Source: Pseudomonadales bacterium (lineage in GTDB: Bacteria; Pseudomonadota; Gammaproteobacteria; Pseudomonadales; UBA7434). From it: 64,000 nucleotides of DNA. How positions within the stretch are numbered: the first letter of the stretch is position 1; each line of letters begins with the position of its first letter. The stretch spans positions 2,650,368 to 2,714,367 of the forward strand of contig OZ244196.1 of assembly GCA_965216795.1 (NCBI GenBank). Reading direction: 5' to 3'. Positions 10,687-46,932 of the stretch are shown here, one piece after another. The position numbers and the translations under genes are program-made. The notes under the pieces are model-generated. The model saw nothing but the letters and a program-made list of their open reading frames with translations. It made no database searches and was not told where the DNA came from.

Positions 10687-11646
10687 TTATTGTTCTTCAG
10701 CAGCGAGTTCGTCAAAGGTGGTCTCTTCAGCGAGCTGCTCAAAGTATTCGTCGACCGAGATGGACCCGGCCAGTTTGAGTGCCGGCGGCTTCATTGCCGA
10801 TGCAAATGTTGGCTGGAAGTTGAAGTCACCACTGTTCTCTATTTGCTGGTAGCTGACGTAAAACACGACGACGGAGACGGCGATGGCCGAGGCGACGGCG
10901 GTGACGTTTTTGATATTGGTCGCGAAAAACAGGTGGATGCGCAGCAGCAGTGCCAATAGCACGAGCGTGGACAGGTAGTCGATGATTTCGTCGGTCAGCA
11001 GACTGTGGGTATTAAATAGCAGCAGCTCCGCGAGCAGCGTCAGGATAATCGACAGGCCGGTAACCAGTGAGACGGCGAGCAAGTGCACGCCGAACCGCGA
11101 CTGGTGGCGAAGAATGCGGCCGGTGATTGCCCAAAGCCCGGCCCACATCAGTACCATGACGCCGCCACTGAGCGTCTCGGTAATATAGGGCGCCCATTCC
11201 AGTGTCGTTGAAGAAGAATAAAACTCAACGAGCAGGGAGGCTGAGCACACCAGCAACAGCGCAGCGAGAGGTATGAAAAGGTTGCCAGCATAGCGTTGCA
11301 GCCTGCCTGGCAGCGCCAGCTTGCGCGTGGGCTCAACCGGGTGTGCGGTCGAGTAAATATCGAGGCTGGTGCGGCCCAGCGTCAGCTGGTCACCGGTCGA
11401 TAACGCAAAAACCGTTTGCCCCGTGCTCTTGCCGTTGACCAGCACGGGGTTGGTCATGTCGAGAACTTCTGCAAACCACTGGTCATCTTCGCGATACAGT
11501 TTCAGCTGCCGTGGTGCGACATAGGCATCGGCCAGCACGATATCGTTGTCGTAGGCTCGGCCGACCGTCATGCTGTCGCCGTGGTTTTTGACCAGCTCGG
11601 CGCCGCGCGCCTGCTTGCCCTCGATTTTGACGACTATTGAATCCAC
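10687..11646 (-). CDS. FHA-domain membrane protein
   Basis: 319 aa. N-terminal FHA fold (TVGRAYDNDIVLAD...VLVNGK...GDQLTLG), then about 5 hydrophobic segments and an acidic tail. Confidence 0.75.
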   Translation of the reverse strand: MDSIVVKIEGKQARGAELVKNHGDSMTVGRAYDNDIVLADAYVAPRQLKLYREDDQWFAEVLDMTNPVLVNGKSTGQTVFALSTGDQLTLGRTSLDIYSTAHPVEPTRKLALPGRLQRYAGNLFIPLAALLLVCSASLLVEFYSSSTTLEWAPYITETLSGGVMVLMWAGLWAITGRILRHQSRFGVHLLAVSLVTGLSIILTLLAELLLFNTHSLLTDEIIDYLSTLVLLALLLRIHLFFATNIKNVTAVASAIAVSVVVFYVSYQQIENSGDFNFQPTFASAMKPPALKLAGSISVDEYFEQLAEETTFDELAAEEQ

Positions 11647-12890
11647 CGGACTTCCTCGACCATACGTTGAATGAAGGCCAGTGCGTTTTCCTTGCTGGCC
11701 GCGGTGACGCTCATTTCTGCGATCGCAGCTTCATTGTTTTCGGCAATCGAGCCCATGACCATCACCGCATCGTAAAGCCCCGCATATTTCTTGTAGGCCC
11801 GCAGGCAGGTGGCAATTTTCCAGTCGCCCGGTGGTAGCGCGATAAACGCCGTGCTGCAGGTAAATTCGGTGATTTCGTCTTCCTCGTAGCTATTGCCCAG
11901 GTAGCTGGGATCAAACCGACCTTCCACATAGTTGTAGAACTGCCAGCGATTGAGTTCGCTGGTGGTGATCCATTCGTAGTTGTAGGCAAAGCTGCCGACC
12001 TGCAGTTCATCGCTGACGTAAACGCTGTCTTCGGAGTTGCAGTGCTGGTGTACGGCCTCGAACTTGTCATCGTCCGCCTCGACGGTATGGCCCCAGCAGT
12101 TGAGTGAGTCCACCAGCTTGCCGAAGACTTCGAGCTTGCCGATGGTTTTTTTCTCAACGTCGCTATTGAGCAGTTGCGTGAAAAACGCTTCCTGGTCTGC
12201 GAGCAATGACTGCTGTATCTGCTCGGCAAAGGGTGCGTTGTTATCGGCGCGCGCCCGTTCAATCAGCGCGGCGAGGTGTTCGGCCGGAACCAGGAAGCTC
12301 AGCTGTTCGCCGCCCTTGGAGACGTTGGTGCCAATGACTTCACCATTGCTGTCGAACGTGGGGCCGCCGCTCATGCCGGGGTTTAGCGAGCCCGAGAACA
12401 GTATGTTCTGGTAGCGGGAGTTCTGGACCAGGCCGTTGTAATTGCCTTCGACGATGGTCATGCCCAGGTCGTGGGGGTTGCCCATCGAATAGATCTTGTC
12501 GCCGTTCTTGAGTGGCTCGGTCCGAATAGGCAGGAACCCCGGCTCTGTAGTCTCCCACTGGACGATGGCCAGGTCGTGCACCACATCGATTGCCAGCAGC
12601 TCAAGGTCGGCCGTCTCGTCGCCCTCGGTAGACAGCTGTAGCTGGTACTTCTCGGGTTCGTGAACATACGATGAGACCACGTGAAAATTCGTGGCGATAA
12701 ACCCGGTATCGGTAACCTGGTAGCCAGAGCCAATGCTGTATTTATCGCCCGAGGCGTTGTCGATCACCCTGATCTGGTAAACGTGCTTGCGGTTTTCTTC
12801 AAAGATGGTCTTCGCACGGGTATCAGCGTGGAGCGGGGCGGCTATCAGGGCAAAGATGGCAAAGGCGATGAGGTGAAAACGTGAATCCAT
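11634..12890 (-). CDS. Secreted trypsin-like (S1/S1C) serine protease with an uncharacterised C-terminal domain
   Basis: 418 aa. Signal peptide; catalytic His (ATNFHVV), Asp (HDLAIV) and Ser (GMSGGP). The stop overlaps the FHA gene start by 13 nt. Confidence 0.75.
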   Translation of the reverse strand: MDSRFHLIAFAIFALIAAPLHADTRAKTIFEENRKHVYQIRVIDNASGDKYSIGSGYQVTDTGFIATNFHVVSSYVHEPEKYQLQLSTEGDETADLELLAIDVVHDLAIVQWETTEPGFLPIRTEPLKNGDKIYSMGNPHDLGMTIVEGNYNGLVQNSRYQNILFSGSLNPGMSGGPTFDSNGEVIGTNVSKGGEQLSFLVPAEHLAALIERARADNNAPFAEQIQQSLLADQEAFFTQLLNSDVEKKTIGKLEVFGKLVDSLNCWGHTVEADDDKFEAVHQHCNSEDSVYVSDELQVGSFAYNYEWITTSELNRWQFYNYVEGRFDPSYLGNSYEEDEITEFTCSTAFIALPPGDWKIATCLRAYKKYAGLYDAVMVMGSIAENNEAAIAEMSVTAASKENALAFIQRMVEEVRWIQ

Positions 12891-13081: not shown

Positions 13082-13438
13082 CTAGATATTATTGCTCTCG
13101 GTCCAGTCTTTGAGTTCCTCCAGAATATCCAGCGCGGACCTGCCAAAGTCGGTAATTTCATAGGCCACGGCGATAGGGCGGGTACTCAGCACTTCGCGCT
13201 CGACCAGCCCGTTGGCTTCCATCTCTTTAAGGCGCTGGTCGACCATTTTCTTGCTCGCGCCGCCGAGCTGTCGGGCCAGGTCGTTAAAGCGTACAGGGCC
13301 ATCTTTCAGGTGCCACAGTATCGAGCCCTTCCATTTGCCGCCGAGGATCCGCATGCCGCGCTCGATGGGACAGGGCTCAAGACAGGCGTTTTCGACGACC
13401 TTTCGGCCATTGCTGCGTTTCTTTACCCGGGTTTCCAT
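13082..13438 (-). CDS. HxlR family transcriptional regulator
   Basis: 118 aa with CPIERGMRILGGKWKGSILWHL, characteristic of HxlR. Confidence 0.8.
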   Translation of the reverse strand: METRVKKRSNGRKVVENACLEPCPIERGMRILGGKWKGSILWHLKDGPVRFNDLARQLGGASKKMVDQRLKEMEANGLVEREVLSTRPIAVAYEITDFGRSALDILEELKDWTESNNI

Positions 13439-13563
13439 TGGTCTGGCCTGCGCGCTTCCAGGTGAGTGATTTTAGGTTACTAAAAGTATACTGGTTGACA
13501 TTAGTATCTTAGGATATCACCATTGCGGCCACTTGTTTAGTCCTGTCTATTTGGAGCATCACG

Positions 13564-14097
13564 ATGGCCACTACCAAAATTGAAGCCGGCTCGGCGTTTC
13601 CCCAGATCAGTGTCACCAGTCTTGCAGGCAATGCAGTGACATTGGGCCAGCCCGCCGATGGTTGCGATTGGCAGCTGGTTGTTGTCTATCGTGGCAGGCA
13701 CTGCCCAATGTGTACGCGGTACTTGAACAACATTGAGTCCATTCGGGCCGGCTTGGCGGATATCGGTGTAGACCTGGTCGCAGTGTCGGGTGACAGCAAG
13801 GCTCAGCTCGAAGAGCACCTCGCCAGACTCGAAGTCAGCTTTGAGCTGTACTATGGCTTATCGCAGTCGCAAATGCAGCAGCTGGGCCTGTACATCTCGA
13901 TTCCCCGATCCGACCAGGAAACTGACCATAACTTTGCCGAACCAGGCATGTTTGTTATTAACGAAGAGGGTAACGTGCAAGTCGTCGATATCTCGAACAA
14001 CCCGTTCGTGCGGCCAGAGATTGATACACTGTTGTCTGGCTTGCAGTGGATCCGCAATCCTGACAACAATTACCCGATCAGGGGTACGTTCAAGTAG
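13564..14097 (+). CDS. Redoxin/peroxiredoxin-like (AhpC/TSA family) protein
   Basis: 177 aa with a thioredoxin-fold CPMC motif (YRGRHCPMCTRYL). Divergent from the HxlR gene. Confidence 0.7.
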   Translation: MATTKIEAGSAFPQISVTSLAGNAVTLGQPADGCDWQLVVVYRGRHCPMCTRYLNNIESIRAGLADIGVDLVAVSGDSKAQLEEHLARLEVSFELYYGLSQSQMQQLGLYISIPRSDQETDHNFAEPGMFVINEEGNVQVVDISNNPFVRPEIDTLLSGLQWIRNPDNNYPIRGTFK

Positions 14098-14156
14098 TTT
14101 CGCGAGTGTCAGGCTGGGCCTGGGCAAGCTGTTCGGGGTAGAGTAAAGCAAAATTT

Positions 14157-14765
14157 ATGACCAAAAACGTTCTCGTCTTATTTGCACACCCCGCCCAGGA
14201 GCAATCCGAAGTCAATGCGCCGCTGTTCGAAGCGGCCCGGGCGGCTGGTGATGTCACCTGCGTCGATCTTTACGCAGAGTACCCCACCCATAATATCGAC
14301 GTGGCCATCGAGCAGCAGAGGCTGGTCGAGCACGATGTGGTGATTTTCCAGTTTCCTTTCTACTGGTATTCAACGCCGGCCATCCTGAAAGACTGGATGG
14401 ACCTGGTGCTGGAATACAATTTTGCCTATGGGGCGCAAGGAAAGGCGCTCGAGGGAAAGTACCTCTTGCCGGTGATCAGCGCTGGCGGCGCCGAGCATGC
14501 CTACCAGCAGGACGGCTACAATCACTTCACACTCCGCGAGCTGCTCAGGCCGCTTGAGCAAACTGCACGGCTCTGCCACATGCGGTTCCTGGCGCCCTTC
14601 GCCATTTTTGGAGCGAGAACGGCCGCCGAAGACCAGCGCATAGAAAATCATATCGGGCAGTACCGCAGGCTGTTGCAGTCGCTCAATAGTGGCCGGTTCA
14701 ATTTCGCCCAGGCGGCAGAGGTTGAATTGCTCGCACAGCAATTTGACGACATTGTTGGTTCATAG
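14157..14765 (+). CDS. kefG: KefG/KefF-type flavodoxin-like NAD(P)H oxidoreductase (K+ efflux ancillary protein)
   Basis: 202 aa with VLVLFAHP...FQFPFYWYS.PAILK motifs. Sits immediately upstream of a KefB/C-type antiporter. Confidence 0.7.
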   Translation: MTKNVLVLFAHPAQEQSEVNAPLFEAARAAGDVTCVDLYAEYPTHNIDVAIEQQRLVEHDVVIFQFPFYWYSTPAILKDWMDLVLEYNFAYGAQGKALEGKYLLPVISAGGAEHAYQQDGYNHFTLRELLRPLEQTARLCHMRFLAPFAIFGARTAAEDQRIENHIGQYRRLLQSLNSGRFNFAQAAEVELLAQQFDDIVGS

Positions 14766-14774
14766 GGGCATGCA

Positions 14775-16682
14775 ATGACGGTCTACTTCATCCAGGCATT
14801 TATCTATCTGTGCGCGGCGGTCATTGCAGTGCCGATCGCCAAGCGACTGGGTCTGGGCTCGGTACTTGGTTATCTGGTCGCAGGTGTTGTTATTGGCCCG
14901 ATGACCGGGCTGGTTGGGTCCGAGACGGTGACTATCCAGCATTTTGCCGAGTTTGGCGTGGTCATGATGCTGTTTCTGGTTGGACTGGAGCTGGAGCCTC
15001 AAAAGTTATGGGAAATGCGCAACCGCCTGGTTGGGCTGGGCGGTCTGCAGGTTTCTCTGAGCACCGCGTTGATCACCGCCGGTTGCCTGTTCCTGGGGCT
15101 TTCCTGGCAGATGGCGCTGGCTATTGGTCTGATGCTGTCGCTCTCGTCAACAGCGATTGTGCTGCAAACCTTCCAGGAGAAGGGGCTGTCAAAAACCGAC
15201 GGGGGTAATTCGGCGTTTTCGGTGCTACTGTTCCAGGATATTGCCGTCATCCCGATGCTCGCGTTTATTCCCTTGCTGGCCATGCCCGAGGTGATGGGCG
15301 TTGCAGCCGCGCACAGCGATGATCACCACGGCTCGATTGACCTGGTCTCGCAGCTGCCCGGCTGGCTCTATGGCATCGTGGTGCTTGGTTCAATTGCCGT
15401 CGTGGTGGTGGGCGGCCATTTTCTCAGCAAACCACTGTTTCGCTTTATTGCCGATACCGGTTTGCGTGAAATGTTTACCGCGACGGCGTTATTGTTGGTC
15501 ATCGGCATTGCAGCGTTGATGAGCCTCGTTGGGCTGTCTCCGGCGCTGGGAACCTTTCTTGCCGGTGTGGTGCTTGCCAACAGTGAATTTCGTCATGAAC
15601 TTGAGACCGACATCGAGCCTTTCAAAGGCATTCTGCTGGGCCTGTTTTTCATTACGGTAGGCGCCGGCATCAACTTCGCGGTCGTCAGCGACAATATTGC
15701 TATCGTGCTGGGGGCGGTCGCTGGCATCATGCTGGTCAAGGCGGCGGTGTTGCTGCTGCTGGCGCGTATTTTCAGGCTCTACCGTAGCGATGGCTGGCTG
15801 CTTACGCTGAGCCTGGCGCAGGCGGGCGAATTTGGTTTCGTGCTGCTGAGCTTCAGTGTCCAGAACAGTGTTGTCAGCCCCGATATCGCGAGCGTGCTTT
15901 CGCCCATTATCGCTATCACGATGTTCCTGACGCCGTTGTTGTTTATTCTGTTCGATAAAGTCGTCAAACGGTTTTACCAGGGCGCTGCCAATGAAGGGGC
16001 TGCCGATCAAATCGATGACCAGGGTACGGTCGTTATCGCAGGCATAGGGCGGTTTGGCCAGATCGTCAATCGCCTGTTGCTGGCCAATGACGTCCCGACC
16101 GTTGTCCTGGATCACTCAGCCTCGATGATCGACAACGCCAGCAAGGTCAATATCAAGACCTGGTATGGCGATGCCAGCCGACCGGATTTGCTCCATAGCG
16201 CCGGCATTGGCGAGGCCGGACTGCTGGTCGTCGCCTTTGATGATCCGCATCGAGCGCTAGAGACGGTCAAGCATGTAAAGCACTTCTATCCGCAGGTAAA
16301 AATACTCGCCAGGGCCTTCGACCGCGGGCATGGCTATGACTTGACTGCGGCGGGTGCCGATATTGTTATTTCGGAAACCTATTTTTCGGCGTTGGAGCTT
16401 GGCGGTGAAGCACTGAAGGCATTGGGTACGCATCCCTTCAAGGTCGAACAGGTTAAAGCCGCATTTCACAAGACCGACGCAAGGCACAGGGACAGTTTCT
16501 ACGAAGAGTGGCACAAGGGCGACGAGGACGATCGCTTTACCCGCAGCTATCTCGACCTGTTTATCGAGATGGAACAGCGCATCATATCGGCGATCAAGCG
16601 CAATCGCATCGATGGCCATGATCTCTCCGAGAGTGGGTGGACTCCGCCGCCCAAAGACTACCTGGACGACTTTGAAAGCTAG
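14775..16682 (+). CDS. kefB: Glutathione-regulated K+-efflux antiporter (CPA2; KefB/KefC type, B vs C not resolved)
   Basis: 635 aa. N-terminal Na+/H+ exchanger membrane domain plus C-terminal TrkA-N/KTN domain (VVIAGIGRFGQIV). Confidence 0.8.
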   Translation: MTVYFIQAFIYLCAAVIAVPIAKRLGLGSVLGYLVAGVVIGPMTGLVGSETVTIQHFAEFGVVMMLFLVGLELEPQKLWEMRNRLVGLGGLQVSLSTALITAGCLFLGLSWQMALAIGLMLSLSSTAIVLQTFQEKGLSKTDGGNSAFSVLLFQDIAVIPMLAFIPLLAMPEVMGVAAAHSDDHHGSIDLVSQLPGWLYGIVVLGSIAVVVVGGHFLSKPLFRFIADTGLREMFTATALLLVIGIAALMSLVGLSPALGTFLAGVVLANSEFRHELETDIEPFKGILLGLFFITVGAGINFAVVSDNIAIVLGAVAGIMLVKAAVLLLLARIFRLYRSDGWLLTLSLAQAGEFGFVLLSFSVQNSVVSPDIASVLSPIIAITMFLTPLLFILFDKVVKRFYQGAANEGAADQIDDQGTVVIAGIGRFGQIVNRLLLANDVPTVVLDHSASMIDNASKVNIKTWYGDASRPDLLHSAGIGEAGLLVVAFDDPHRALETVKHVKHFYPQVKILARAFDRGHGYDLTAAGADIVISETYFSALELGGEALKALGTHPFKVEQVKAAFHKTDARHRDSFYEEWHKGDEDDRFTRSYLDLFIEMEQRIISAIKRNRIDGHDLSESGWTPPPKDYLDDFES

Positions 16683-16830: not shown

Positions 16831-17385
16831 ATGGCAGGTGACACATTGCCCGATAAGGAACTCATCAAACGCGCCCAACGGGGTGACAGCGCTGCCTTTG
16901 CCGAGGTGGTGGACGAATGCTATGCCACGCTTTTTCGGTTTGCGATGAAATATACGGCGCAGCGCGCCGATGCCGAAGATATTGCGCAGCAGGCCTGTAT
17001 CAAGCTTGCGCGCTCTATTCATACCTATCGCTTTGAATCCAAGTTCAGTACCTGGCTATACCGGCTGGTGCTGAATTGCGCGCGGGACTGGCAGCGAAAG
17101 CACCCGCGGGACGAGCAAAGCATCGATGAGCTCAATGGGTCGATGCACGAGTCGCTACTGGTGGCTGGCGGTGCCGCGGAAGACCAGATCCTGCTTGGCC
17201 AGGTGCTTGAGCGTGTCGCGGGATACGGCGATGACTTTTTGGAGACGCTGGTGCTGGTGATGGGCGAGGGCATGAGTCATGCTGATGCCGCCGCCTTGCT
17301 CGATGTGAAAGCGTCGACCGTCTCCTGGCGCATTCATGAAATTCGCAAGCGCCTGTCGGCTGAGCAGCTGAAGGGGGTTCAATAA
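16831..17385 (+). CDS. ECF (sigma-70 family) RNA polymerase sigma factor
   Basis: 184 aa with region 2 (FAEVVDECYATLFRFAMKY...DAEDIAQQA) and a region 4 HTH. Confidence 0.85.
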   Translation: MAGDTLPDKELIKRAQRGDSAAFAEVVDECYATLFRFAMKYTAQRADAEDIAQQACIKLARSIHTYRFESKFSTWLYRLVLNCARDWQRKHPRDEQSIDELNGSMHESLLVAGGAAEDQILLGQVLERVAGYGDDFLETLVLVMGEGMSHADAAALLDVKASTVSWRIHEIRKRLSAEQLKGVQ

Positions 17386-19367
17386 TGCAGCCTGGTGACA
17401 TCGAGAAGCTATTTGACAGCGTGGCTTTGCAAAGCGCAGACGTTGCGCGTGAGCGAGCGAAGCGGGCGGCGATGGCAGCATTTGAAGACATTCACGCTGG
17501 CACAGAGTCAGTTGAGCATGTGACTGGCGATGGCGACCAAGTTTATTGCGAGTTACGCAGTCCTAACTGTATCGATGAGCGACACAGTGGGAGCGACAGC
17601 ATGAGTGTTTTCAAGCAGCGATGGATTTTCAGCGGTATTGCCAGTGCGGCGGTACTGGTGGTGGTAGTCAGCCTGGGGTTCAATGTACTGAGTCCAGGCC
17701 CGGTGTTATACGACCGTGCGCCGCAGCCTGTTGCGGTAGCGGACTTTACAAGGCCCGAGGCGGATGTGCGGGTAGAATCTGAAAGGACTGTAGAAGCACT
17801 GGCCGTCGCATCGGCGCCCCGCCAGCGTATGCCTGATGCTTCTGCCGGTGCCCCGTCCCTTGCCGAGATCTCGATTGTGCCCGAACAGGCGCGTAGCAAG
17901 GGCCTGGCGGTGGCTGATCTCATGCCAACAGTGCCTGTAGACGAGGGGCGAGATCGCTTTCAAGCTGTCGAGCACAACCCGGTTCACTTAACCCGTGAGC
18001 AACCGGTTTCTACGTTCTCTGCCGATGTCGATACTGCGTCGTACAGCTTCGTACGCAGGCAGCTGAACCGGGGCGTGCTGCCGCAAAAAAATGCGGTCCG
18101 GTTAGAGGAGATGGTTAACTACTTCCCCTACGAGTACCCCGAGCCCGCAAACCGACAGAATCCCTTTGCGGCAACGGTGTCCGTGCTCGATTCGCCCTGG
18201 CGCGAGGGCAACAAGCTGGTGCACATCGGCATTCGGGGGTATGACATCGCGGCTGACGATACGCCCGATAGCAACCTGGTATTCTTGCTCGATGTTTCAG
18301 GCTCTATGAACAGTCCGGACAAACTGCCACTGGTGAAGCAGTCTATGAGCCTGCTGCTGAGCCGCCTAAAAGCCACTGATACCGTAGCGATCGTTGTCTA
18401 TGCGGGCGCCGCGGGTGTTGTGCTCGAGCCTACCGAGGTGGCAGACCGGCAGACAATCGTCAGTGCGATGCAGCGCCTGAATGCTGGCGGGTCGACCGCG
18501 GGTGGTGCGGGTATCAAGGCAGCGTACCAGCTTGCCCGCAGCAGCTTCAAGGAAGGTGCAGTGAATCGCGTGATCCTGGCAACCGATGGCGACTTTAACG
18601 TGGGTATTGCCAGTGTCGAGGAATTGCAGGGTTATATCGAGCGTCAACGACACGAGGGTATTTATCTCACGGTGCTGGGTTTTGGCCAGGGTAACTATCA
18701 TGACCATCTGATGCAGGCGCTTGCGCAGAACGGCAATGGCGCAGCTGCCTATATCGATACCCTGGGTGAGGCGCAAAAGGTGCTGGTCGATGAGGCAACG
18801 TCAACGCTGTTTCCGATTGCTGGCGACGTCAAACTGCAGATGGAGTTCAACCCCGACACCGTGAGTGAGTACCGCCTGCTCGGGTATGAGACGCGTGCAC
18901 TCAAGCGCGAGGATTTCAATAACGACAAGGTTGACGCGGGCGACGTCGGAGCAGGGCACAGCGTCACAGCGATTTATGAGATCACGCCGGTGGGCAGTGG
19001 AAGCGGGCTCGTTGAGCCGGGGCGCTACGCGGAGGGCGATGCCAAAGCGGGCGCCTTCAGTGGAGAATACGGGTTTCTGAAAATACGCTACAAGCTGCCT
19101 GGAGAGGACAGCTCAAAGCTGCTCTCGGTCCCTGCATTGGTATCAGGTAGCGAACGCCAGGCTCCTGGACTTGCCCGTGAAATCGATTTTTCTGTCGCTG
19201 TCGCAGGCTTCGCCCAGCTGCTAAGCGGTGGCCAGTACCTGGGTGACTGGAGTTATGACGATGTCATAGAGCTGGCGCAGCCAAACCGGGGCGATGACCC
19301 CTATGGTTACCGCGCAGAGTTTCTGCAGCTGGTGCGAAAAGCGGCGATCGCCGAAGACCTGGACTAG
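17385..19367 (+). CDS. Membrane-anchored von Willebrand factor A protein (YfbK-like), possible anti-sigma partner
   Basis: 660 aa. The start overlaps the sigma gene stop (TAATG). One TM segment, then a vWA MIDAS motif (LDVSGSM). Confidence 0.7.
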   Translation: MQPGDIEKLFDSVALQSADVARERAKRAAMAAFEDIHAGTESVEHVTGDGDQVYCELRSPNCIDERHSGSDSMSVFKQRWIFSGIASAAVLVVVVSLGFNVLSPGPVLYDRAPQPVAVADFTRPEADVRVESERTVEALAVASAPRQRMPDASAGAPSLAEISIVPEQARSKGLAVADLMPTVPVDEGRDRFQAVEHNPVHLTREQPVSTFSADVDTASYSFVRRQLNRGVLPQKNAVRLEEMVNYFPYEYPEPANRQNPFAATVSVLDSPWREGNKLVHIGIRGYDIAADDTPDSNLVFLLDVSGSMNSPDKLPLVKQSMSLLLSRLKATDTVAIVVYAGAAGVVLEPTEVADRQTIVSAMQRLNAGGSTAGGAGIKAAYQLARSSFKEGAVNRVILATDGDFNVGIASVEELQGYIERQRHEGIYLTVLGFGQGNYHDHLMQALAQNGNGAAAYIDTLGEAQKVLVDEATSTLFPIAGDVKLQMEFNPDTVSEYRLLGYETRALKREDFNNDKVDAGDVGAGHSVTAIYEITPVGSGSGLVEPGRYAEGDAKAGAFSGEYGFLKIRYKLPGEDSSKLLSVPALVSGSERQAPGLAREIDFSVAVAGFAQLLSGGQYLGDWSYDDVIELAQPNRGDDPYGYRAEFLQLVRKAAIAEDLD

Positions 19368-24600: not shown

Positions 24601-24717
24601 CGACTGCGGCCAGGCTGCCGGTGCCAGGGTCAAGCCCGCGGGTAGATCGATTTGCGCTAGAATACGCGCCTATGCTGTAGCATAAGCGTAATCTTGGCGT
24701 CGTCACCCGGACCGATT

Positions 24718-25665
24718 ATGAGCACCTTTCCCAAGTTCAAGCCCACAGACTACCCGACGGTTTACCTCGAGCAGACCGACAAGGACTTCTCGGACTCCCT
24801 GCAGTCGAATTTTCGTTACGCCTATTTCAAGACCATTGCCAAAGGTGGCAAGTCGCTGATTCAGTCGTGCAAGGATATGCATCTGGGGCGGGTGGTGTGC
24901 TACAAATCGCTGCTGCCTGAAGTTGCCGACGACCCCATAGAGCAAAAACGCCTGCTGCGCGAAGCGCGGATTTCGGCCATGCTGCAGCATCCAAATACGA
25001 TGCCCACCTATGAGCTGGGTCGCGATCGCAAAGGGCACTACTACTTTACTATGAAGCTGGTGCATGGTTATACCTTCCGTGAAATTATCGATTTTCGCGA
25101 GCGCTATGACCTCGGCCAGTTGCTCGATATTTTGGTACAGGTCGCCTATGCGCTCGATTATGCACACACGCATGGCGTCGTGCATCGCGATATCAAACCT
25201 GAAAACATTCTCGTGGGCCCGTTTGGCGAGGTGCTACTACTCGACTGGGGGCTCGCCAAGGTGCGCAGTGAAACAGGGCAGGCCGCCGATATTGATGCCG
25301 TCGACCCGCAAGTGAGCGCGCCCGAAAAAACCATGACAGGGTTCCAGAAGCTGCAGGGTACCGTGAGTTATATGTCGCCCGAGCAGATGGACAAGTCACC
25401 CGATATCGATGGCCGCACCGACATATACAGCCTGGGCGTCGTGCTTTATGAGGCGATCTGCGGAGAGCTGCCGGTATCGGGCGACACCGTCGACAAGGTC
25501 ATGGCCAGCGTGCGCAACGATGTGCCGCCATTGCCATCGACCTTGACCACAATGCCGGTGCCGACCCTGCTCGAAGAGACCGTCATGCATTGCCTGCAAA
25601 AATCGCCGGCGCAGCGACTGGCGACGATGGGCGACTTTGTCCGGCAGCTAAAACACTGTTACTGA
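24718..25665 (+). CDS. Ser/Thr protein kinase (kinase domain only)
   Basis: HRDIKPENILV catalytic loop, DWG (DFG-like), SYMSPE (APE-like). First ATG at 24718; the ORF opens at TTG 24694. Confidence 0.8.
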   Translation: MSTFPKFKPTDYPTVYLEQTDKDFSDSLQSNFRYAYFKTIAKGGKSLIQSCKDMHLGRVVCYKSLLPEVADDPIEQKRLLREARISAMLQHPNTMPTYELGRDRKGHYYFTMKLVHGYTFREIIDFRERYDLGQLLDILVQVAYALDYAHTHGVVHRDIKPENILVGPFGEVLLLDWGLAKVRSETGQAADIDAVDPQVSAPEKTMTGFQKLQGTVSYMSPEQMDKSPDIDGRTDIYSLGVVLYEAICGELPVSGDTVDKVMASVRNDVPPLPSTLTTMPVPTLLEETVMHCLQKSPAQRLATMGDFVRQLKHCY

Positions 25666-26414
25666 CCGCCGCTCAGTCGCGCGAGAATTAGCGAGATATT
25701 GTCCTGCCCGCCGCAATCGAGCGCGCGGTCGAGTAGCTGTTCGGCGAGATCATCGAGATTGTCGGCGTGACGTGTGGCGTATTCGAGCAGTCTTTCATCA
25801 TCGACTTTGTCTGACAGGCCGTCGGTGCAGGCCAGGATAATATCGTGCTCGTCGACCGTTGCGGTGCCCGTACCCGGTTGCAATAGCAGTATGCTGCCAA
25901 CGCGCTGGGTCAGTATTCTCCCTGCCGACCTGTGCAGTTTCGGCGCCGTTTTGCGATCGATTTTGTCCGGGTCGAGTGTGTGGTCGCTACTGAGCTGCTT
26001 AACCTCGTTGGTGTGCGGGCGAATGCGATAGATACGCGAATCACCGACCCATGAGTAGGTCAGCTGCTGCTCCTGCAAAGTGAAGCAACTTAGCGTGCAG
26101 CCCATCTTGCTGTAATCGGGGTTGTTTTGCTGCACAGCGATGATCGCCTCGTTGGCAAACTTCACCGCGTTGGCAAGTACCATTTCACGGTCACGCTGTG
26201 CCTTACCCGTGTCGCCGCCGGCGTCAGCCAGAAACTCCATGCAGGCATCGACCGCCATCTGGCTGGCCACTTCGCCGTGGGCGTTGCCGCCGATGCCATC
26301 GGCGATCGCCGCAACGCCCTGCGGGGCGTTGATCGCCAGGCAGTCTTCATTCTTGCGACGGACTTTGCCGCGGTCGCTGCGACTGGCAAACTCGATAGAA
26401 CAAGGTTTTGACAT
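25659..26414 (-). CDS. PP2C-family Ser/Thr phosphatase
   Basis: SDRGKVRRKNEDC, DGIGG, CTDGLSD and GGQDNISLILARL motifs. Start set at MSKPCSIEF. The 3' end overlaps the kinase 3' end by 7 nt. Confidence 0.8.
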   Translation of the reverse strand: MSKPCSIEFASRSDRGKVRRKNEDCLAINAPQGVAAIADGIGGNAHGEVASQMAVDACMEFLADAGGDTGKAQRDREMVLANAVKFANEAIIAVQQNNPDYSKMGCTLSCFTLQEQQLTYSWVGDSRIYRIRPHTNEVKQLSSDHTLDPDKIDRKTAPKLHRSAGRILTQRVGSILLLQPGTGTATVDEHDIILACTDGLSDKVDDERLLEYATRHADNLDDLAEQLLDRALDCGGQDNISLILARLSGGQ

Positions 26415-26489
26415 GGGGCTAGTGTAGCCAATCTCGCCGGCTAAGCCCACCGTCCGGGGCTAAGTAGCGGGCGGTGCCTGTCTCGCCGC

Positions 26490-29665: not shown

Positions 29666-32335
29666 TCAACTGCCGCTGGCGTTGTTCCAGCGCCTGCGCT
29701 GCAGCCGCAGCGCTGCGAGCACCAGGCCTGCCAGCAAGCTGGCGAGCCCCCAGGGTCCCATCGCGGGGACGTTTTTCCCGGCAAGATCGGGCACAAGCGG
29801 GTTGGAGCCCTGGCTGATTTCCTGGCCATCCGGGGTGCCATCGCCATCGGTGTCAGCATTGAACGGGTCTGTTCCGGCCAGTGCTTCGTCCGTAGCGCTA
29901 AGACCATCATGGTCGTGATCATTAAACAGCGGGTCAAAGCCGTTATCGACCTCAAACTTGTCGAGAATGCCGTCGCCGTCGGTGTCGTTATTGGTTGGGT
30001 CAGTGCCGGCGGTTTGTTCTTCCAGAGACGTGAGCCCGTCGCCGTCGGGGTCTGAGCTGGCGCTGTCGGCAACCAGCGGGTTCAGCCCGAACTGCACTTC
30101 AAACCCGTCTTCCAGCAGGTCGTTATCGGTATCGTTGTCACCCGGGTCAGTGCCGGCGGCCTGCTCCTGAAGGTTATTGAGGCCGTCATTATCGCCATCC
30201 AGTGATTGCTCGCCCGCTGCAAAGGGATCCAGGCTGTTGTCTGTCTCGAACACATTGAGCAGGCCGTCCCCGTCAATATCCATCTCAAAGATGTACGTCG
30301 AACCGGTATCGACGGCGACGCCATCGTCAAAATAGGCACCAACCAGTACCGTGTTTCCTGACAATGCGACGGTCGTGCCGAAGATATCATCAGGTGCAGC
30401 GTCTGTTGCTATGAGCTTTTGATGCTGGGTCCAGGCCTGGCCCTGCTTGATGAACACATAGGCCGAGCCTGCGTCGGTGGCCGCCGCGCCGTCTTGCCAT
30501 GCGCCGAATATCGCCCGGTCGCCATCGACTGCGACGCTTACGCCCAGTTCCGAGCTGGCGATGTCACTGGCCAGTAAAATATCCTGCTGCGTCCAGCTTG
30601 TGCCCGCGCGTTCATAGACATAAACAGCCCCTGCGCGTGGGGTAGCGCCTTCATCCCGTTTGAAAGCACCGACCATGGCGGTATCGCCGCTGACAGAGAC
30701 AGACAGTCCGAATAGATTGCCCGCAGCAGCATCGGAGGCGACCAGTTTTTGCTGCTCTGTCCAGGTCGCCAGGCTATTGGTAAAGACGTAAGCAGAACCC
30801 ACCAGGTCGCCGGTTTGGTGAGCACCCACGATAATCGTGTCGGCGTTTATAGAGACTGCGACGCCAAACAGGTCCTGCACAGCGCCATCACTTGCCGTGA
30901 GTATCTGTTGTTCGGACCAGCTGACCCCCGCGCGGGTAAAGACATAGGCCGCGCCGGTATCCGAAGCGGTGCTATCTTCGAATACCGCGCCCGCGACAAC
31001 GGTATCGCCCTCTAATGCGACTGCGCCTGCAAAATTGTCACCCGCGCCTGCATTGCTTGCGGTCAGCTTGGCTTGCTGCGTCCACACCCCCGCGTTGCGC
31101 ACAAACACGTAGGCAGCGCCAGAATCCGTGCCATCGTCGTCGTCTTTTGGCGCGCCAACGACAATCGTATCGCCACTAATATCGACGGCGGTGCCAAAGT
31201 TGTCATCAGCAGCAGCGTCACTGGCCACGAGTTTTGCCTGTTCGACCCAGGTGCCACCGCTGCGAACATAGACGTATGCCGCGCCTGAACCGGCGGCGAC
31301 ACCGTCTTCTTGCCAGGCGCCCACGACTACAGTGTCGCCGTCCATACGAACCTGGGTGCCAAACTGGTCTTCGAATGCTGCGTCACTGGCGACCAGTTTC
31401 TGTTGCAGCGGCGTGTCGTTCGGGTCGAGTGGGTCGGCGCCAAAGCTGACCTCGTTGCCGTCGGTTGTGCCGTCGCTGTCGGTATCAGGGTTTCGAGGGT
31501 CGGTCCCTGCCGATTGCTCCTGCAGGTTATTCAGGCCGTCGCCATCCGTATCCAGTAGCGCTTCGCCCGCTGCCCAGGGCAGAAAACCGTTGCTGAGTTC
31601 GAAGTCATCGAACAGGCCGTCTGCATCCGCGTCACTGCTTCCGCCTGCTGAGACAAAATAGTTATCGAAAGTCGTCTCTGCACTGGCAGACAGTGTTGTT
31701 GATAGTGCGATGACCGCGCCCAGTGGGTCAGATGACAGCAGGGCGTTGGTTGCAGACAGCGTTTCAAGAAGGACCGGGCTGCTACCGACAGGCAGTTCAT
31801 AGAGCCGGGCCTCCAGCTCGTCAATGCCGGCGCCGCTCCTTCGCAAAACAAGACGATATTGATTGCCAGCGTTGAGTGAGACCGTACCGGTGTCCAGCGT
31901 TGTGCCAAACGCATAGGTTGAGCCCGACTCGTGCACCAGCAGGAAAAACGTGCCGAACACCGTTGCGCGGTAATTCGCGTTGCCGGCGGCATTTGCCAGC
32001 GCCAGGCTGGTTGCAGAATTGCTACCCCAGTCGGTGAAATCGACCGAAGCGGTTGCCGTGTTGTAATTGCTGGCGGTGCCACGCGCATAAGCACTGTAGG
32101 GTGCCGAGCCGCCGGTGACACTCAGGCGGTAGCGAAATTCGCCCGCGTTATTCGGGTCGGCCGGGTAATCAATGGTGGTGGTGCCACTGGCCGCGTTGGT
32201 TTCAGTCCAGTTTGTTACAGGGCTTGTGCCGCTGTCGAAGTTTTCGTACTGCTGGGCAAGGGTGGGTAGCGACAGGCTGGCAAGAAGACTGGCGGCAAGC
32301 CATCGGGTAAAGCAGTAGCGCATTGAGATTCTCAC
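29666..32335 (-). CDS. Large exported FG-GAP beta-propeller / thrombospondin-type-3 Ca-binding repeat protein with an IPTL/PEP-CTERM-like anchor
   Basis: 889 aa. Signal peptide; repeated ~55-aa units (L.ASD.A..D.FG..V...GDT..VGA...D....SGAAYVF); DTDGDGL.N..E...GTDP repeats on both sides; C-terminus [27 protein letters not shown]. Confidence 0.8.
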
Positions 32336-40596: not shown

Positions 40597-42441
40597 ATGC
40601 GAACGCCGACTGGAACGCCAACAAAAGCCAAAAAATGCTACGCACGTTCATTGGAATACTCCGCTCTTATTTTTACCACGTTACTGGTTAGCGGCGCGAG
40701 CATCGCGCTAGACACCGATGGCGATGGGCTTTCGAATACCGTCGAAACCAACACGGGCACCTTTGTTTCAGCTTCCGACACCGGCAGTGATCCGGTGGTT
40801 GCAGACACCGATATCGATGATTTTAATGACGGCATTGAGGTGTCATTGGGCACCGACCCGAATTCCGCACTGAATAGCCCGCGTGAAACGCACCTTGAGC
40901 CAGCTTACCCCGAAGTCTTTGGCCGCTTTGGTTTTAGCGTCGCGGTCGATGTCGACACGTCCGGCGCTTGCCAGATAAGGTTGGGCGCTAGTAGCGGTGT
41001 TGCCCAGATTTTTACAAGAGTAGGGGCGCAATGGTTGGAGCAAGGCCAGCTATTCACTGGCGGACTGGCCACCGGCCTGTTTTGCTGGAGTATCGCTTTG
41101 TCGGGTGACAGTGCCGCGATTGGCGCTCCGGGCGATGCGACCGGAGGCGTGGTTTATATTTTTGACCGGACGGGTTCCACCTGGCCATTCACCTCGACTC
41201 CTCTCGTTCCCGGCGATTCAGCAGGTGGCGATAGCTTTGGCTATGCCGTTGACATCGATGGTGACACGCTGTTCGTGGGCGCTCCGTTTGATGATGACAA
41301 TGGCAGCGCATCGGGCTCGGTCTACGTTTTCACGCGAACCGCCGGGGTTTGGAGCGAGCAAGCCAAGATTACCGCTGGCGATGGCACTGCCAACGACAAT
41401 TTTGGTCAAGACCTTGAATTCTCGGCAGGTTCGCTGATTGTCGGTGCGCCTGGTGATTCTGATAGTGCCAGCAATGCTGGGTCAGCTTACATTTTCACCG
41501 GCTCGGGGAGCAGCTGGACACAGCAAGCGAAACTTTCAGCGAGCACGCCCGCTGCCGATGATGCCTTTGGCACTGCAGTCAGTATTTCAAGCGATAGCGT
41601 ACTGATCGGCGCTCCTGGAGATGCTGCGAATGGCGCAGGTGCAGGTGCTGCCTATGTGTTCACGGGCTCCGGTTCATCCTGGGCCCAGCAGCAAAAATTG
41701 TTGCCCGGCGACGGTGCCAGTAATGATGTGTTTGGCGATGATGTTGCGCTCTGGGGAGAGGTTGCCGTCGTTAGTGCACCCTTTGATGATGGCCCCACCG
41801 ATTCAGGTTCAGCCTATGTTTTTTTACGCTCTGGCACAGCGTGGGTGCAAATTGATAAGTTCAAGCCCGCCGCTAGTGGGCAATCCGACAATTTTGGAGA
41901 GCGAATCGCTATTGATAATGGCACTGTAGCGCTTGGCGCTCCTACGCGGCAAGGTGCAACCGGCGCAGCTTATATCGTTGATCTGGACATCGATAAAGAT
42001 GGTTTGCTTAACGCGGTAGAGAGTGGCACTGGCATATTCGTATCGCAATTCGACACGGGGACTGACCGCCTCGACGCCGACAGCGATGAAGACAACGTCA
42101 TCGACGGCGATGAAACGCAAATTCATGGCACTGACCCGAATGCCAATGATACCGATGGGGACGGCATCCTTGATGATGCCGAGATTGCAATTGGTTGGAA
42201 CCCTTTGTCAGATGACATTGATAACGATGGCCTGACCGATGCTGAAGAGTCAGGCCTTGGTACTGACCCGCTACTTGCTGACACCGACATGGATGGCATT
42301 AGCGATGGTGATGAAATCGCGAGCGGCACGGACCCACTCATAGTTGATAACGGTACAAAGAGTGTTCCAGCAATGGGTGCGATGGGTTTATTTGCATTGA
42401 TGTTGGGGTTATTGTTTCTCGGCGTGAGGGTGAAGGCTTGA
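40597..42441 (+). CDS. Exported FG-GAP beta-propeller / TSP3-repeat protein with an IPTL/PEP-CTERM-like anchor (paralogue of 29666-32335)
   Basis: 614 aa with the same repeat types (GD...FG.AV.I.GDT..VGAP.DD....SGS.YVF; DTDGDG). C-terminus [26 protein letters not shown]. Confidence 0.8.
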
Positions 42442-42475
42442 AGCCTGATAGACCAGACCAAAATACGACAGAAGT

Positions 42476-43207
42476 ATGATGATGATATTCAAGAAACATC
42501 TTGGGGCGAGCCTGTTGTTCCTTTCACTATTGGGTGGTTGCAGCGGCCTATCGGTTGAGAAAGCCCTGCAAACTGGTTTGGCGATAAATCAGGCGCTGCT
42601 TGATAATTCCGAAGCAAGTTATTCGCAAGCGGTTAAGGAAACGCTTGAGCTCAGTAGCACTCGCGCCGCGCAGGCTCTGTCGCAGCCCGGTGGGTACAGT
42701 GGTAACCCGGCGTTCAAAATCACCATGCCTGAGCAGCTCGATACGGTTACCAGTACACTGCGGGCTTTTGGTTTGAATCGCCAGATCGATGAGATCGAGC
42801 TGCTGATGAACCAGGGCGCGGAAGCTGCGGCCGTAGAGGCGAAGGCTGTGTTCATTGATGCAGTCAGGCAAATGACCATTAGTGATGCGTTGGGCATTAT
42901 CCAGGGCAGCGATACAGCCGCTACTGAATACTTTGAGTCCAAAACCGAGAATATTCTCAGGCAAAGATACCAGCCCATCATTGAAAGCCATTTAAGCAAG
43001 GTGGGTTTTTACAACGAGTACCGGCAGTTTCTAACGGCCTACAATCGGCTGCCCATAGCAGACAAGCCCGAGCTGGGCCTGCAACAACACGTCTTGCGTG
43101 AAAGCCTGGACGGCTTGTTTGCACAGGTGGCCAAAGAAGAGGCGCTGATTCGACAAGACCCGGTAGGGAAGGGCAGCGCTTTTTTGGGGTCGGTGTTTGG
43201 AAGGTAG
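42476..43207 (+). CDS. DUF4197 family lipoprotein
   Basis: 243 aa. Lipobox LLGGCS. NPAFKITMPEQL...LMNQGAEAA...MTISDALGIIQGSDTAATEYF matches the remembered DUF4197 pattern. Confidence 0.65.
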   Translation: MMMIFKKHLGASLLFLSLLGGCSGLSVEKALQTGLAINQALLDNSEASYSQAVKETLELSSTRAAQALSQPGGYSGNPAFKITMPEQLDTVTSTLRAFGLNRQIDEIELLMNQGAEAAAVEAKAVFIDAVRQMTISDALGIIQGSDTAATEYFESKTENILRQRYQPIIESHLSKVGFYNEYRQFLTAYNRLPIADKPELGLQQHVLRESLDGLFAQVAKEEALIRQDPVGKGSAFLGSVFGR

Positions 43208-43276
43208 CGGGCTTTTGGGCAGGCTTGTATATGCAAAAAATCCGCGATTACGTAGCCGGACTGGATCTGTCGTTGG

Positions 43277-44002
43277 TCAAGAGGTTGCAGGCCTGCCGGC
43301 GCTTGCTTTGTGTCCCAGAAGTAGAAGCCATATACCCAGTACCAGATGAGTAAAAAAAGGCATAGGCACGTTCACAGGTACGGGAAGGATTTGTGCAGTC
43401 GCCTGGGTGCCCTCGGGGGTAAATGAGCGACCCCAGCCAAACCAGCTCAAGACGTTGTTTGGAACGGGTACAGCAGATCCAAAAACGGGGGCGACATCTG
43501 GATCTTGCAGAGTAAACGTGGAACCATCGAAGTGAATGCTTGAAGCAAACCAGATCGACTCGTTATTGTAAGTGAAAAAAGCGACATAGCGCAGAACATC
43601 CCACTGATTCACGCCGGCGTTGTCGCGAATGGAAAACTCGCTGTGTGACAGGTGCTGCGGCTCTCCATCAATCGTTAGCGATGTCAGCACTATCTCATAG
43701 TCATAGTGAAATGACGGCCCGCCCGTATTGGAAGAGCTGCCCTCGATCTCGGTTTCAGCCACAATCTCTAGTGAATCAACGCTCACTGAAATAGTAAAGG
43801 GTATCGAATGAGCTGGGTCGGAACTGTGGCCCGCGGGCGGCTCAGGCGTAAAAATGCCATCGTTGACATACCCGCTCCATTCGTATTGCAAAAGTCCAGC
43901 GCATGCGATGTGGCTGGCAAAGGTGAAGAGGAGCAGTACAGCTACATTTCTAAGCATGTTGCCTATTGCTGTTCCCAGCGATACAGCTTTTATTATTCTC
44001 AT
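43277..44002 (-). CDS. Hypothetical exported protein with a PEP-CTERM-like anchor
   Basis: Start probably ATG 44002 (AGGGAG RBS). The C-terminus is LPVPVNVPMPFFTHLVLGIWLLLLGHK: motif, then a hydrophobic helix. Confidence 0.5.
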   Translation of the reverse strand: MRIIKAVSLGTAIGNMLRNVAVLLLFTFASHIACAGLLQYEWSGYVNDGIFTPEPPAGHSSDPAHSIPFTISVSVDSLEIVAETEIEGSSSNTGGPSFHYDYEIVLTSLTIDGEPQHLSHSEFSIRDNAGVNQWDVLRYVAFFTYNNESIWFASSIHFDGSTFTLQDPDVAPVFGSAVPVPNNVLSWFGWGRSFTPEGTQATAQILPVPVNVPMPFFTHLVLGIWLLLLGHKASAGRPATS

Positions 44003-44152
44003 GGCCATCTCCCTGTTCATTCACCTGGTGAGTGATCCAGGATTCAAACTAAACGAACGTTACCAGGCTTTCAAGTGACTTGGCCATTGGTGTGCGGCGC
44101 TTTCCCGTGTGGTTCCTGATTGGCACATAGGCAGCACTTGTAGTCTGCCTGA

Positions 44153-44453
44153 TTCCAGCCGCAATAACCCCATGAATAGTAAAGAGATTGGTGGGTATCA
44201 GGACTTGCTACGTGCCCTGGGGGTAATCCTGGGACCTGCCGATGACTACTTGGCCCATGGCTATGAGTCCAGCGAACAATACGTATCAGTCCCCATAAGC
44301 CTAAGCAATGTGAGAGGTTATCCGAAGGGCTTAATTGAGGCTTACCCCGACCGAAACATATCCGAACCTGCTGCCTGAGATTTCCTGGCCCGAGTGTTGC
44401 TGCGCTATGGACATCAAGGTCGGGGTGGGGTGGGCTGCCGAACCTGGGCCGAA
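44153..44453 (-). repeat. attP-like repeat unit, copy A (degenerate tRNA 3'-half fragment 44189-44269 plus L and R arms)
   Basis: L arm ttccagccgcaataaccccatgaatagtaaagagat. The tRNA-like core carries two 18-nt insertions. The R arm is colinear with copies C and D, including CCGAAM pairs at 44351/44362 and 44438/44449. Confidence 0.8.
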
Positions 44454-44680
44454 CCGCGCAATCAGGATAGCATGTCGTCATCTCAACTATCGGAAGTGGC
44501 CAGGCGCACGTTAGGTAACCCGAGTCTTCAGACAGAATACTCCCCGTTTCCAGTGCGCTCACCAAAACATCATGGGGGTCACACGGCTGTGGCCGCAGCT
44601 AACTGGACTATCTGAAAAGACAGTTGATTTTCTTCGCTAAAGAAGAACAATGTAGGCTTTCGCTCGCCACGAGAGAAACT

Positions 44681-46603: not shown

Positions 46604-46622
46604 GGTCAAAAGTTGCCATCGA

Positions 46623-46722: not shown

Positions 46723-46932
46723 AATTAGCCTACCGTATTTACTGAGATTGATCTACGTTGATTTAGATCGATATTGGAATCAATTCAATCACTTGGTCTT
46801 TTACCTGGGTCTATCCAGGTTGATACAGATTGATTTCATCTGCTTACATAGCGCTTACACGCATTTGATAATATGTCTGCCCAATTTGATATACGCCAAC
46901 CGGTACTTGAACTATAATTCTTGGTGTGATAT

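Follow-up and report, generated by a model that had tools for sequence, protein, structure and literature searches.

Related systems

Periplasmic HtrA proteases (DegS, DegP, DegQ, HtrA2; MEROPS family S1C) combine a chymotrypsin-fold core, a His-Asp-Ser triad and a GNSGGP-like motif with one or two C-terminal PDZ domains. A gene located in a 64,000-nucleotide stretch of a Pseudomonadales bacterium genome (assembly GCA_965216795.1, contig OZ244196.1, positions 2,650,368 to 2,714,367 of the forward strand; hereafter, the window) codes for a protease which shares the core, the triad and the motif (here GMSGGP), but carries a four-Cys alpha/beta domain of about 200 aa in place of PDZ and, unlike the HtrA proteases, is obligatorily paired with an FHA domain-containing membrane protein encoded by the adjacent overlapping gene. 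This gene pair is the subject of the present work.

Several described systems resemble one or the other side of the pair. DegS and RseA of the sigma-E envelope stress response transfer information across the membrane by site-1 proteolysis, and our pair would be analogous in that an HtrA-type periplasmic protease is linked to a membrane protein with a protein-binding cytoplasmic domain. However, RseA has an anti-sigma domain and one transmembrane helix, while the partner found here has an FHA domain and five helices; degS and rseA are unlinked, whereas here the genes are translationally coupled; and neither a sigma factor nor a site-2 protease is linked to the pair in the clustered related loci. 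MarP (Rv3671c), likewise a periplasmic protease of chymotrypsin fold, is tethered to the membrane through a polytopic transmembrane segment, but its helices and protease domain form one polypeptide lacking an FHA domain, in contrast to the two coupled genes considered here.

On the FHA side, the SctD proteins of type III secretion systems (YscD, PrgH, EscD) also start with a cytoplasmic FHA-fold domain followed by a membrane span. The FHA domains of SctD likewise lack the phosphothreonine-binding residues and act without phosphorylation. SctD has one transmembrane helix and large periplasmic ring-building domains and is encoded in type III secretion clusters, whereas the protein studied here has five helices, a 50-aa tail and no type III secretion genes around it. 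By FHA sequence the closest are the actinobacterial domains: the GR..DNDIVL motif is found in EmbR (GRLHDNDIVL) and GarA, and in FhaB/FipA (Rv0019c) an FHA domain is also joined to a transmembrane segment. The GarA (OdhI) pocket can reportedly bind non-phosphorylated partners. The mycobacterial FHA proteins, however, retain Ser and His, bind phosphothreonine and partner Hanks kinases rather than a protease.

The pair could not be assigned to any of these families (SctD/YscD, TagH/Fha, FhaB/FipA, HtrA/Deg, for which the PDZ domain is missing, or MarP). All NCBIfam matches of the protease (HtrA, DegS, DegQ, MarP) are below threshold, with 63.1 bits against the cut-off of 416.2 for TIGR02037 and 41.5 against 250 for NF033740, and the match to MarP is weak (8.5e-11). 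The FHA membrane protein scores 19.7 bits against 86 for SctD (TIGR02500, aa 13-58 only), 24.2 against 120.25 for the type VI secretion protein TagH/Fha (TIGR03354), with no type VI secretion genes nearby, and 43.6 against 125 for FhaB/FipA (NF049868).

The overlapping gene pair and its conservation

Both genes are located on the minus strand. Their arrangement is as follows.

11634-12890, minus strand: protease gene, 418 aa, ATG start (ORF listing; ORF, open reading frame)
10687-11646, minus strand: gene for the FHA/five-helix inner-membrane protein, 319 aa, GTG start (ORF listing)
11634-11646, minus strand: 13-nt overlap of the protease stop with the GTG start of the FHA membrane protein gene
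11652-11657, minus strand: Shine-Dalgarno sequence GAGGAA, 5 nt upstream of this GTG

The GTG at 11646 is the most upstream start of its ORF and is supported as the true one, since the N-terminus of the protein (M-D/E-x-I/L-V) is kept in position across relatives. The Shine-Dalgarno sequence of the window gene lies inside the codons of the conserved C-terminal E-x-V-x-W motif of the protease. In relatives, a GGAG/GAGG Shine-Dalgarno sequence about 16 nt upstream of the start is encoded by the Glu codon of the protease motif (M/L)-E-x-V-x-W, so that the end of one protein and the ribosome-binding site of the other constrain each other. We read the 13-nt overlap as translational coupling of the two genes, an arrangement that would fit their 1:1 co-production.

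A genome scan with the single protein found nothing, and the relatives were found when it was repeated with the family alignment. One genome per GTDB species was scanned with the pattern GRAY[DS]ND; 269 relatives of the FHA membrane protein were present in the GTDB species genomes, and 80 loci were kept, a set biased towards sequences with that pattern. They come from Cellvibrionales/Halieaceae, Lysobacterales (Dokdonella, Rhodanobacter), Alteromonadales (Thalassotalea, Psychrosphaera, Catenovulum, Rheinheimera), as well as from Burkholderiales, Gallionella, Azoarcus, Stellaceae, Desulfuromonadales, Myxococcota, Gemmatimonadota, Acidobacteriota and Lentisphaeria. The pair spans Alpha-, Beta- and Gammaproteobacteria, Myxococcota, Gemmatimonadota, Acidobacteriota and Lentisphaeria; at least seven phylum- or class-level lineages are represented. 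The closest relatives of both proteins belong to Cellvibrionales/Halieaceae-type gammaproteobacterial metagenome-assembled genomes.

A tblastn search located the protease, including its C-terminal domain, directly upstream and on the same strand in all 86 loci approached from the FHA side (three of them cut by contig ends). Starting from the protease, the FHA membrane protein gene was found directly downstream with a 13-nt overlap in 3/3 loci on long contigs; the flanking genes were different in each case (dnaK-dnaJ, thiSG and thrS-infC-rpmI-rplT, respectively). Even three divergent homologues of the FHA membrane protein (36%, 26% and 24% identity) are immediately preceded by a 416-433-aa Trypsin_2 gene, with an overlap of 10-22 nt and unrelated flanks. 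When homology-supported start codons are used, 67 of 76 loci show a start/stop overlap, which measures 1-22 nt; the most frequent overlap is 13 nt (36 loci), followed by 10 nt (14), 4 nt (7) and 16 nt (6).

ORF clustering in 82 loci revealed no third conserved neighbour: no kinase or phosphatase, no sigma factor and no site-2 protease recurred. The recurring ORF clusters were antisense shadow ORFs of the two genes themselves, and no real family was present in more than 10 loci. Neither protease-FHA gene fusions nor secretion genes were found in the related loci. The C-terminal domain of the protease is absent from the 72,556 plasmid and 50,697 phage records searched. The cassette is a chromosomal, self-contained two-gene unit.

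An earlier note on this window, made from the sequence alone, had described the two ORFs with their 13-nt overlap, the signal peptide, triad and additional C-terminal domain of about 200 aa in the protease, and the lack of type III and type VI secretion genes nearby. All of this is borne out, the last point both within the window and in the related loci, and the adjacency of the two genes, which the note had proposed to check in other genomes, is conserved as described above.

The protease and its C-terminal domain

The protease consists of the following parts.

12825-12890, minus strand: predicted Sec signal peptide, aa 1-22, ending in ...APLHA before DT (read from the sequence)
12246-12788, minus strand: chymotrypsin-fold catalytic domain, aa ~35-215 (alignment to HtrA2, 5tnz)
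12681-12683, 12573-12575 and 12369-12371, minus strand: codons of the triad residues H70, D106 and S174, respectively (alignment to HtrA2, 5tnz)
11637-12245, minus strand: family-specific C-terminal domain, aa 216-418 (203 aa; blank in Pfam; AlphaFold2 model, profile search)

The N-terminus, MDSRFHLIAFAIFALIAAPLHA followed by DT, looks like a Sec signal peptide and lacks a lipobox Cys, and a hydrophobic N-terminal 12-mer is present in 68 out of 77 members of the protease family alignment, all from independent genomes. Residues 54-187 match Pfam Trypsin_2 (6.5e-22). The best relatives with solved structures are HtrA2, DegQ, DegS and HtrA1 (1e-13 to 1e-8), and alignment to HtrA2, DegS and DegQ identifies the triad as H70 (TNFHVV), D106 (HDLAIV) and S174 (GMSGGP). 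The three residues and the surrounding G-M-S-G-G-P are invariant in 77/77 members, which argues that catalysis is under selection. A homology search returned 1956 homologues at E<=0.001, the best among those listed being 46-62% identical. No PDZ domain was detected by Pfam at E<=1. By these features the protein is a predicted Sec-exported periplasmic HtrA-like (S1C) serine protease without PDZ.

Its C-terminal domain has no match in Pfam. When the 203-aa fragment was used in a word-indexed homology search, nothing was found, while an index-free profile search against 1.84 billion representatives returned 626 clusters at 50% identity, 444 of them at E<=1e-10. The blank is a limitation of the word index, and negatives obtained with such fragments are not trustworthy. 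In the best 150 of the 626 clusters, each of the 114 full-length proteins has the protease domain at its N-terminus and the domain in question at its C-terminus. On this count the C-terminal domain is exclusive to this protease family, where it takes the place of the HtrA PDZ domains.

Four Cys residues of this domain (C265, C284, C345 and C362) are invariant in 77/77 members and may form two periplasmic disulfides. Family-wide, only these four Cys, W266, R364, Y366 and D374 persist. A conserved metal site was considered and rejected, as the CWGH and HQHC motifs are kept only in the subclade of the window protein.

The AlphaFold2 model of the domain is confident (pLDDT, predicted local distance difference test score, 91.2; pTM, predicted template modelling score, 0.87) and starts with a long helix, after which comes a sandwich of beta-sheets accompanied by two more helices. 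In a Foldseek comparison with PDB it weakly matched PsbP (E 7.6e-4 to 5e-3, probability about 1.0), with Mog1p, MTC28, Apa, SciW and Tsi3 coming next. All these matches come from one Foldseek run and are weak (TM-scores 0.38-0.50, root mean square deviation 7-9 A, identity 5-11%). The PsbP/Mog1p/MTC28/DUF1795 (Eag, SciW) folds are protein- or peptide-binding alpha/beta sandwiches, to which the modelled domain bears a weak likeness; it differs from them in the four invariant Cys and the long N-terminal helix, and no relationship to PsbP/Mog1-like proteins was found at the sequence level.

The FHA membrane protein

The partner protein is divided into a cytoplasmic FHA domain, a membrane domain and a periplasmic tail.

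11353-11646, minus strand: cytoplasmic FHA domain, aa 1-98, with the invariant G29-R30-A-Y-D-N-D and N66 (Pfam and alignments)
11506-11517, minus strand: A44-P45-R46-Q47 at the place of the canonical phosphothreonine-binding S-R-x-H (aligned to S-T-K-H of 1uht and S-R-H-H of EmbR)
11446-11454, minus strand: T65-N66-P67 at the place of the canonical S/T-N-G (1uht, EmbR and GarA alignments)
10843-11286, minus strand: five transmembrane helices, aa ~121-268, N-in/C-out, with conserved W168, W172, R177 and F185 (hydropathy, positive-inside rule, AlphaFold2)
10690-10842, minus strand: periplasmic acidic C-terminal tail, aa 269-319 (column statistics, AlphaFold2)

A homology search with this protein gave 25 clusters of homologues. 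Pfam recognises Yop-YscD_cpl (3.7e-13, 50 bits against the cut-off of 33.2) and FHA (1.2e-10) within aa 15-98 and nothing outside this region. The FHA match (PF00498) covers aa 27-91 with 42.1 bits against the cut-off of 20.7, and profile matches extend to the structures of EmbR, GarA, Rv1747 and FhaA. The Yop-YscD_cpl match is due to nothing more than the FHA fold.

In hydropathy profiles, both the window protein and a 106-sequence alignment show five hydrophobic cores, at residues 125-138, 158-172, 192-205, 225-237 and 253-262. Loops 177-186 and 243-249 are rich in Lys and Arg, while loops 144-156 and 210-220 and the tail are acidic. Since the FHA domain is cytoplasmic and lacks a signal, and given these loop charges, the protein is predicted to be oriented N-in/C-out with residues 269-319 in the periplasm. 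The AlphaFold2 model of aa 101-319 (pLDDT 84) has a short amphipathic helix followed by five long ones. Foldseek found no meaningful match to the model of the transmembrane domain in PDB (best E 1.3). Neither this domain nor the C-terminal domain of the protease has a family in Pfam or NCBIfam.

The tail carries the motif F275-x3-P279-x-(Y/F)281-x3-L285-K-P287-P288 followed by an amphipathic helix. The best conserved periplasmic residues are F275, P279, Y/F281, L285, K286, P287, P288, L290, L292, S/T297 and F/Y301-F302. In the model residues 273-297 are of low confidence, while the terminal helix 298-318 is confident, and the conserved tail residues sit in the low-pLDDT stretch. Such a combination may indicate a linear motif which folds on a partner.

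The phosphothreonine pocket

The pocket was mapped by phmmer alignment to the Arabidopsis FHA structure 1uht and by profile alignments to EmbR and GarA/OdhI, all of which agree. G29-R30 aligns with the canonical Gly-Arg of the beta3-beta4 loop, which is present in all 105 sequences covering the site out of 106 aligned (102 unique). The beta4-beta5 loop of the window protein lacks Ser-x-x-His, having Ala44 and Gln47 instead, and there is no shifted substitute Ser or Thr at residues 41-47. In the beta6-beta7 loop, N66 of the Asn-Gly pair is kept in 104/106 sequences, while the Gly following it is replaced by Pro67 in the window protein. The alignments thus confirm the pocket described in the earlier note, according to which Gly-Arg and Asn are kept while S-x-x-H reads A-P-R-Q and NG reads NP; binding residues at shifted positions, which would have overturned that description, were not found.

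Across the 106 sequences the Ser position is occupied by A (51%), S (25%), C (13%) or D (8%), the His position by H (72%), Q (24%) or E (5%), and the Gly position by G (70%) or P (25%). The 102 unique members practically all share Arg30, Asn66 and the GRAY(D/S)ND(I/V/L) motif, but a fully canonical pocket is found in only 24. The combination of H to Q/E with G to P/Q, nearly always without the Ser, is found in 28/102 members, among them the window protein and its closest relatives. As judged from the alignment, the H to Q and G to P changes mark the subclade of the window protein, while the variable Ser position is a family-wide trait and not its peculiarity.

Nine family sequences, mostly from Wenzhouxiangellaceae, Gemmatimonadales and unclassified gammaproteobacterial metagenome-assembled genomes, have Asp at the Ser position (V-D-A-H-H), so that the pocket may there contain an acidic substitution of its own.

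Replacement of the contacting Ser by Ala reportedly abolishes phosphothreonine binding in Rad53 FHA1, EmbR and GarA. Phosphothreonine recognition is therefore unlikely to be the conserved function of the family, and least likely in the clade of the window protein. The cytoplasmic ligand of the FHA domain in this clade is probably bound without phosphothreonine or via an acidic mimic. As Arg and Asn are invariant, this surface probably continues to bind a ligand, which may be such a mimic.

Possible function of the pair

Taken together, the strict co-occurrence, translational coupling, exclusive C-terminal domain, intact active site and conserved periplasmic motif indicate that the two proteins work across the inner membrane as a 1:1 unit, one that is functional and probably also physical. 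We tentatively favour, at slightly less than even confidence, the view that the FHA membrane protein is an anchor or regulator of its dedicated protease, with the FHA domain linking it to a cytoplasmic protein without phosphothreonine in the clade of the window protein. The two genes would then be a dedicated co-translated cassette building an inner-membrane-spanning protease complex. The protease, predicted to be exported by Sec to the periplasm, has a fully intact HtrA-type core and, instead of PDZ, a C-terminal domain probably stabilised by disulfides; its partner is predicted to be held in the inner membrane by five helices, exposing the FHA domain to the cytoplasm and the tail of about 50 aa to the periplasm. 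With its tail and periplasmic face, the membrane protein might dock on the protease via the C-terminal domain of the latter, and this docking could both tether and gate the protease, tying its activity or location to the cytoplasmic ligand of the FHA domain.

A bolder version is possible, though we regard it with more doubt: an unrecognised, widespread trans-envelope device in which a dedicated PDZ-less HtrA-type protease, equipped with a sensor or docking domain of its own, is mechanically coupled, via a novel five-helix transducer, to an FHA domain that has abandoned phosphothreonine recognition in most lineages.

Distance matrices of the C-terminal domain and of the partner's transmembrane domain correlate with r=0.92 (partial correlation 0.43; for comparison, 0.48 between the catalytic and C-terminal domains within the protease), the best correlation shown by the C-terminal domain. 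This might lend weak support to the anchor or regulator view but is suggestive only, as it is confounded by shared phylogeny. Other points also weigh against that view. If the membrane protein were a substrate of the protease, the strict pairing in an operon would be explained equally well. The fold assignment of the C-terminal domain is weak (TM 0.38-0.50). Arg30 and Asn66 are invariant and 24/102 (24%) of the family members have a canonical pocket, so phosphothreonine binding may be an ancestral trait on which some of them still rely; and a Hanks kinase and a PP2C phosphatase are encoded in the window 13 kb from the FHA membrane protein gene.

The substrate alternative is the main rival view, which we consider rather less likely. 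It implies outside-in regulated proteolysis similar to that in DegS-RseA or NfeD-stomatin systems: an envelope cue sensed by the C-terminal domain would lead to cleavage of the partner's periplasmic tail or loops, whereby the partner would be destabilised and the cytoplasmic protein held by the FHA domain released or altered. The invariant catalytic triad, an HtrA-type core closest to DegS, HtrA2 and DegQ and a sensor-like domain replacing PDZ are all in line with this. The conserved disordered tail with its hydrophobic residues could serve as an accessible cleavage or docking site, and of the two proteins the partner is the faster evolving (mean p-distance 0.65-0.79 vs 0.52-0.70 for the protease). 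However, substrates of regulated intramembrane proteolysis are typically single-pass proteins while this one has five helices, the pair is not accompanied by a site-2 protease or a sigma factor, and translational coupling of a protease to its own substrate is unusual, although such coupling is reportedly known for NfeD/stomatin.

Classical phosphothreonine signalling appears improbable. It assumes that the FHA domain binds a protein phosphorylated by a Hanks kinase (e.g., the one encoded at 24694-25665) and that this is relayed to the protease, as in the PpkA-Fha pathway of type VI secretion. The invariant G29-R30 and N66, the 24/102 fully canonical members and the presence of a Pkinase gene (2.3e-38) and a PP2C gene in the same window are consistent with it, but Ser, His and Gly are all replaced in the window protein, the Ser position varies family-wide (A/S/C/D), and a Hanks kinase motif was found within +-5 kb of the pair in 0/86 related loci.

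We consider it very improbable that the two proteins are independent and merely share an operon, one being a general periplasmic quality-control protease and the other an unrelated FHA membrane protein. The HtrA-like core does resemble housekeeping proteases, and an interaction between the two proteins is something we infer; nevertheless, adjacency and overlap are kept across phyla while all flanking genes change, the C-terminal domain was never found outside this protease in the full-length representatives examined, and its distances correlate with those of the partner's transmembrane domain.

Finally, an origin as a remnant or accessory of a secretion system (type III SctD/YscD-like or type VI TagH/Fha-like) or as a mobile anti-phage or conflict cassette is hardly credible and these readings are effectively excluded: Yop-YscD_cpl is the best Pfam match of the FHA domain, there are weak NCBIfam matches to TagH and SctD, and the protease domain matches PADLOC RT-Protease_XI (3e-15), but the NCBIfam scores are far under their cut-offs (19.7 vs 86 and 24.2 vs 120), the five helices and 50-aa periplasmic tail come without ring-building domains, secretion genes are lacking in the window and related loci, the PADLOC match concerns only the generic trypsin domain with none for the FHA membrane protein, the flanks are housekeeping genes (dnaKJ, thrS-infC, glyQS), and the C-terminal domain is absent from the plasmid and phage records searched.

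Returning to the anchor or regulator view, the earlier note had proposed a cytoplasm-to-periplasm signalling pair, possibly phospho-independent. A functional unit spanning the membrane is supported by the present analysis, while the interaction, the direction of signalling and phospho-independence are still what we infer, as are complex formation, the docking site and the regulatory logic.

Other genes of the window

The genes neighbouring the pair in the window code for an MFS transporter, a Rieske oxygenase, MarR and HxlR regulators, a peroxiredoxin and KefF/KefC-like proteins; there are no type III or type VI secretion genes in the window. A consensus scan for promoters and terminators was uninformative, with no promoters and fewer terminator matches than expected from shuffled sequence.

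Directly upstream of the protease gene, an HxlR-family regulator gene (13082-13438, minus strand) is divergent from a Redoxin/AhpC-like gene (13564-14097, plus strand), which is followed by genes for a KefF-like flavodoxin-fold protein (14157-14765) and a KefC-like protein with Na_H_Exchanger and TrkA_N domains (14775-16682). The region 13082-16682 looks like an electrophile or oxidative-stress cluster. Next to it, an ECF sigma factor gene (16831-17385; Sigma70_r2, Sigma70_ECF) overlaps by its stop the start of a gene for a 660-aa protein with vWA and YfbK_C domains (17385-19367); the region 16831-19367 may encode an unusual sigma/anti-sigma-like pair.

The Hanks-type Ser/Thr kinase gene (24694-25665, plus strand; Pkinase 2.3e-38, with DWG for DFG) is convergent with the PP2C phosphatase gene (25659-26450, minus strand), their 3' ends overlapping by 7 nt. 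There is no FHA gene beside them, and the distance to the FHA membrane protein gene is about 13 kb. The presence of both enzymes means that phospho-signalling exists in this genome.

An 889-aa protein encoded at 29666-32335 (minus strand) has seven FG-GAP_2 repeats together with bacterial thrombospondin type-3 repeats, and ends in a hydrophobic anchor at its C-terminus. The region 42000-54000 has a G+C content of 0.49-0.54, compared to 0.58-0.65 elsewhere in the window, and may be a horizontally acquired segment.

Significance

The components of the pair are of known kinds, an FHA fold and an S1C protease core, while the architecture coupling them is undescribed and widely conserved. Much is known about FHA domains and about HtrA proteases separately, but a full-text literature search found no description of a protease-FHA membrane protein pair, or of such an obligate coupled pairing across the inner membrane. 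The pair also adds two uncatalogued domains, the four-Cys C-terminal domain and the five-helix transmembrane domain without a match in PDB. Its retention in every locus examined, over many phyla, implies a selected, shared function.

The family offers a natural series of FHA pockets, from canonical (24%) through Ser-less to triple-substituted as in the window protein, and this series is useful for asking how FHA domains come to recognise ligands independently of phosphorylation. Should the complex model be correct, the pair would be a new coupling of periplasmic proteolysis to cytoplasmic signalling, or the reverse. If the trans-envelope device described above is real, it would constitute a new route by which periplasmic proteolysis is linked to protein-protein signalling in the cytoplasm without recourse to sigma/anti-sigma, two-component or Hanks-kinase logic.

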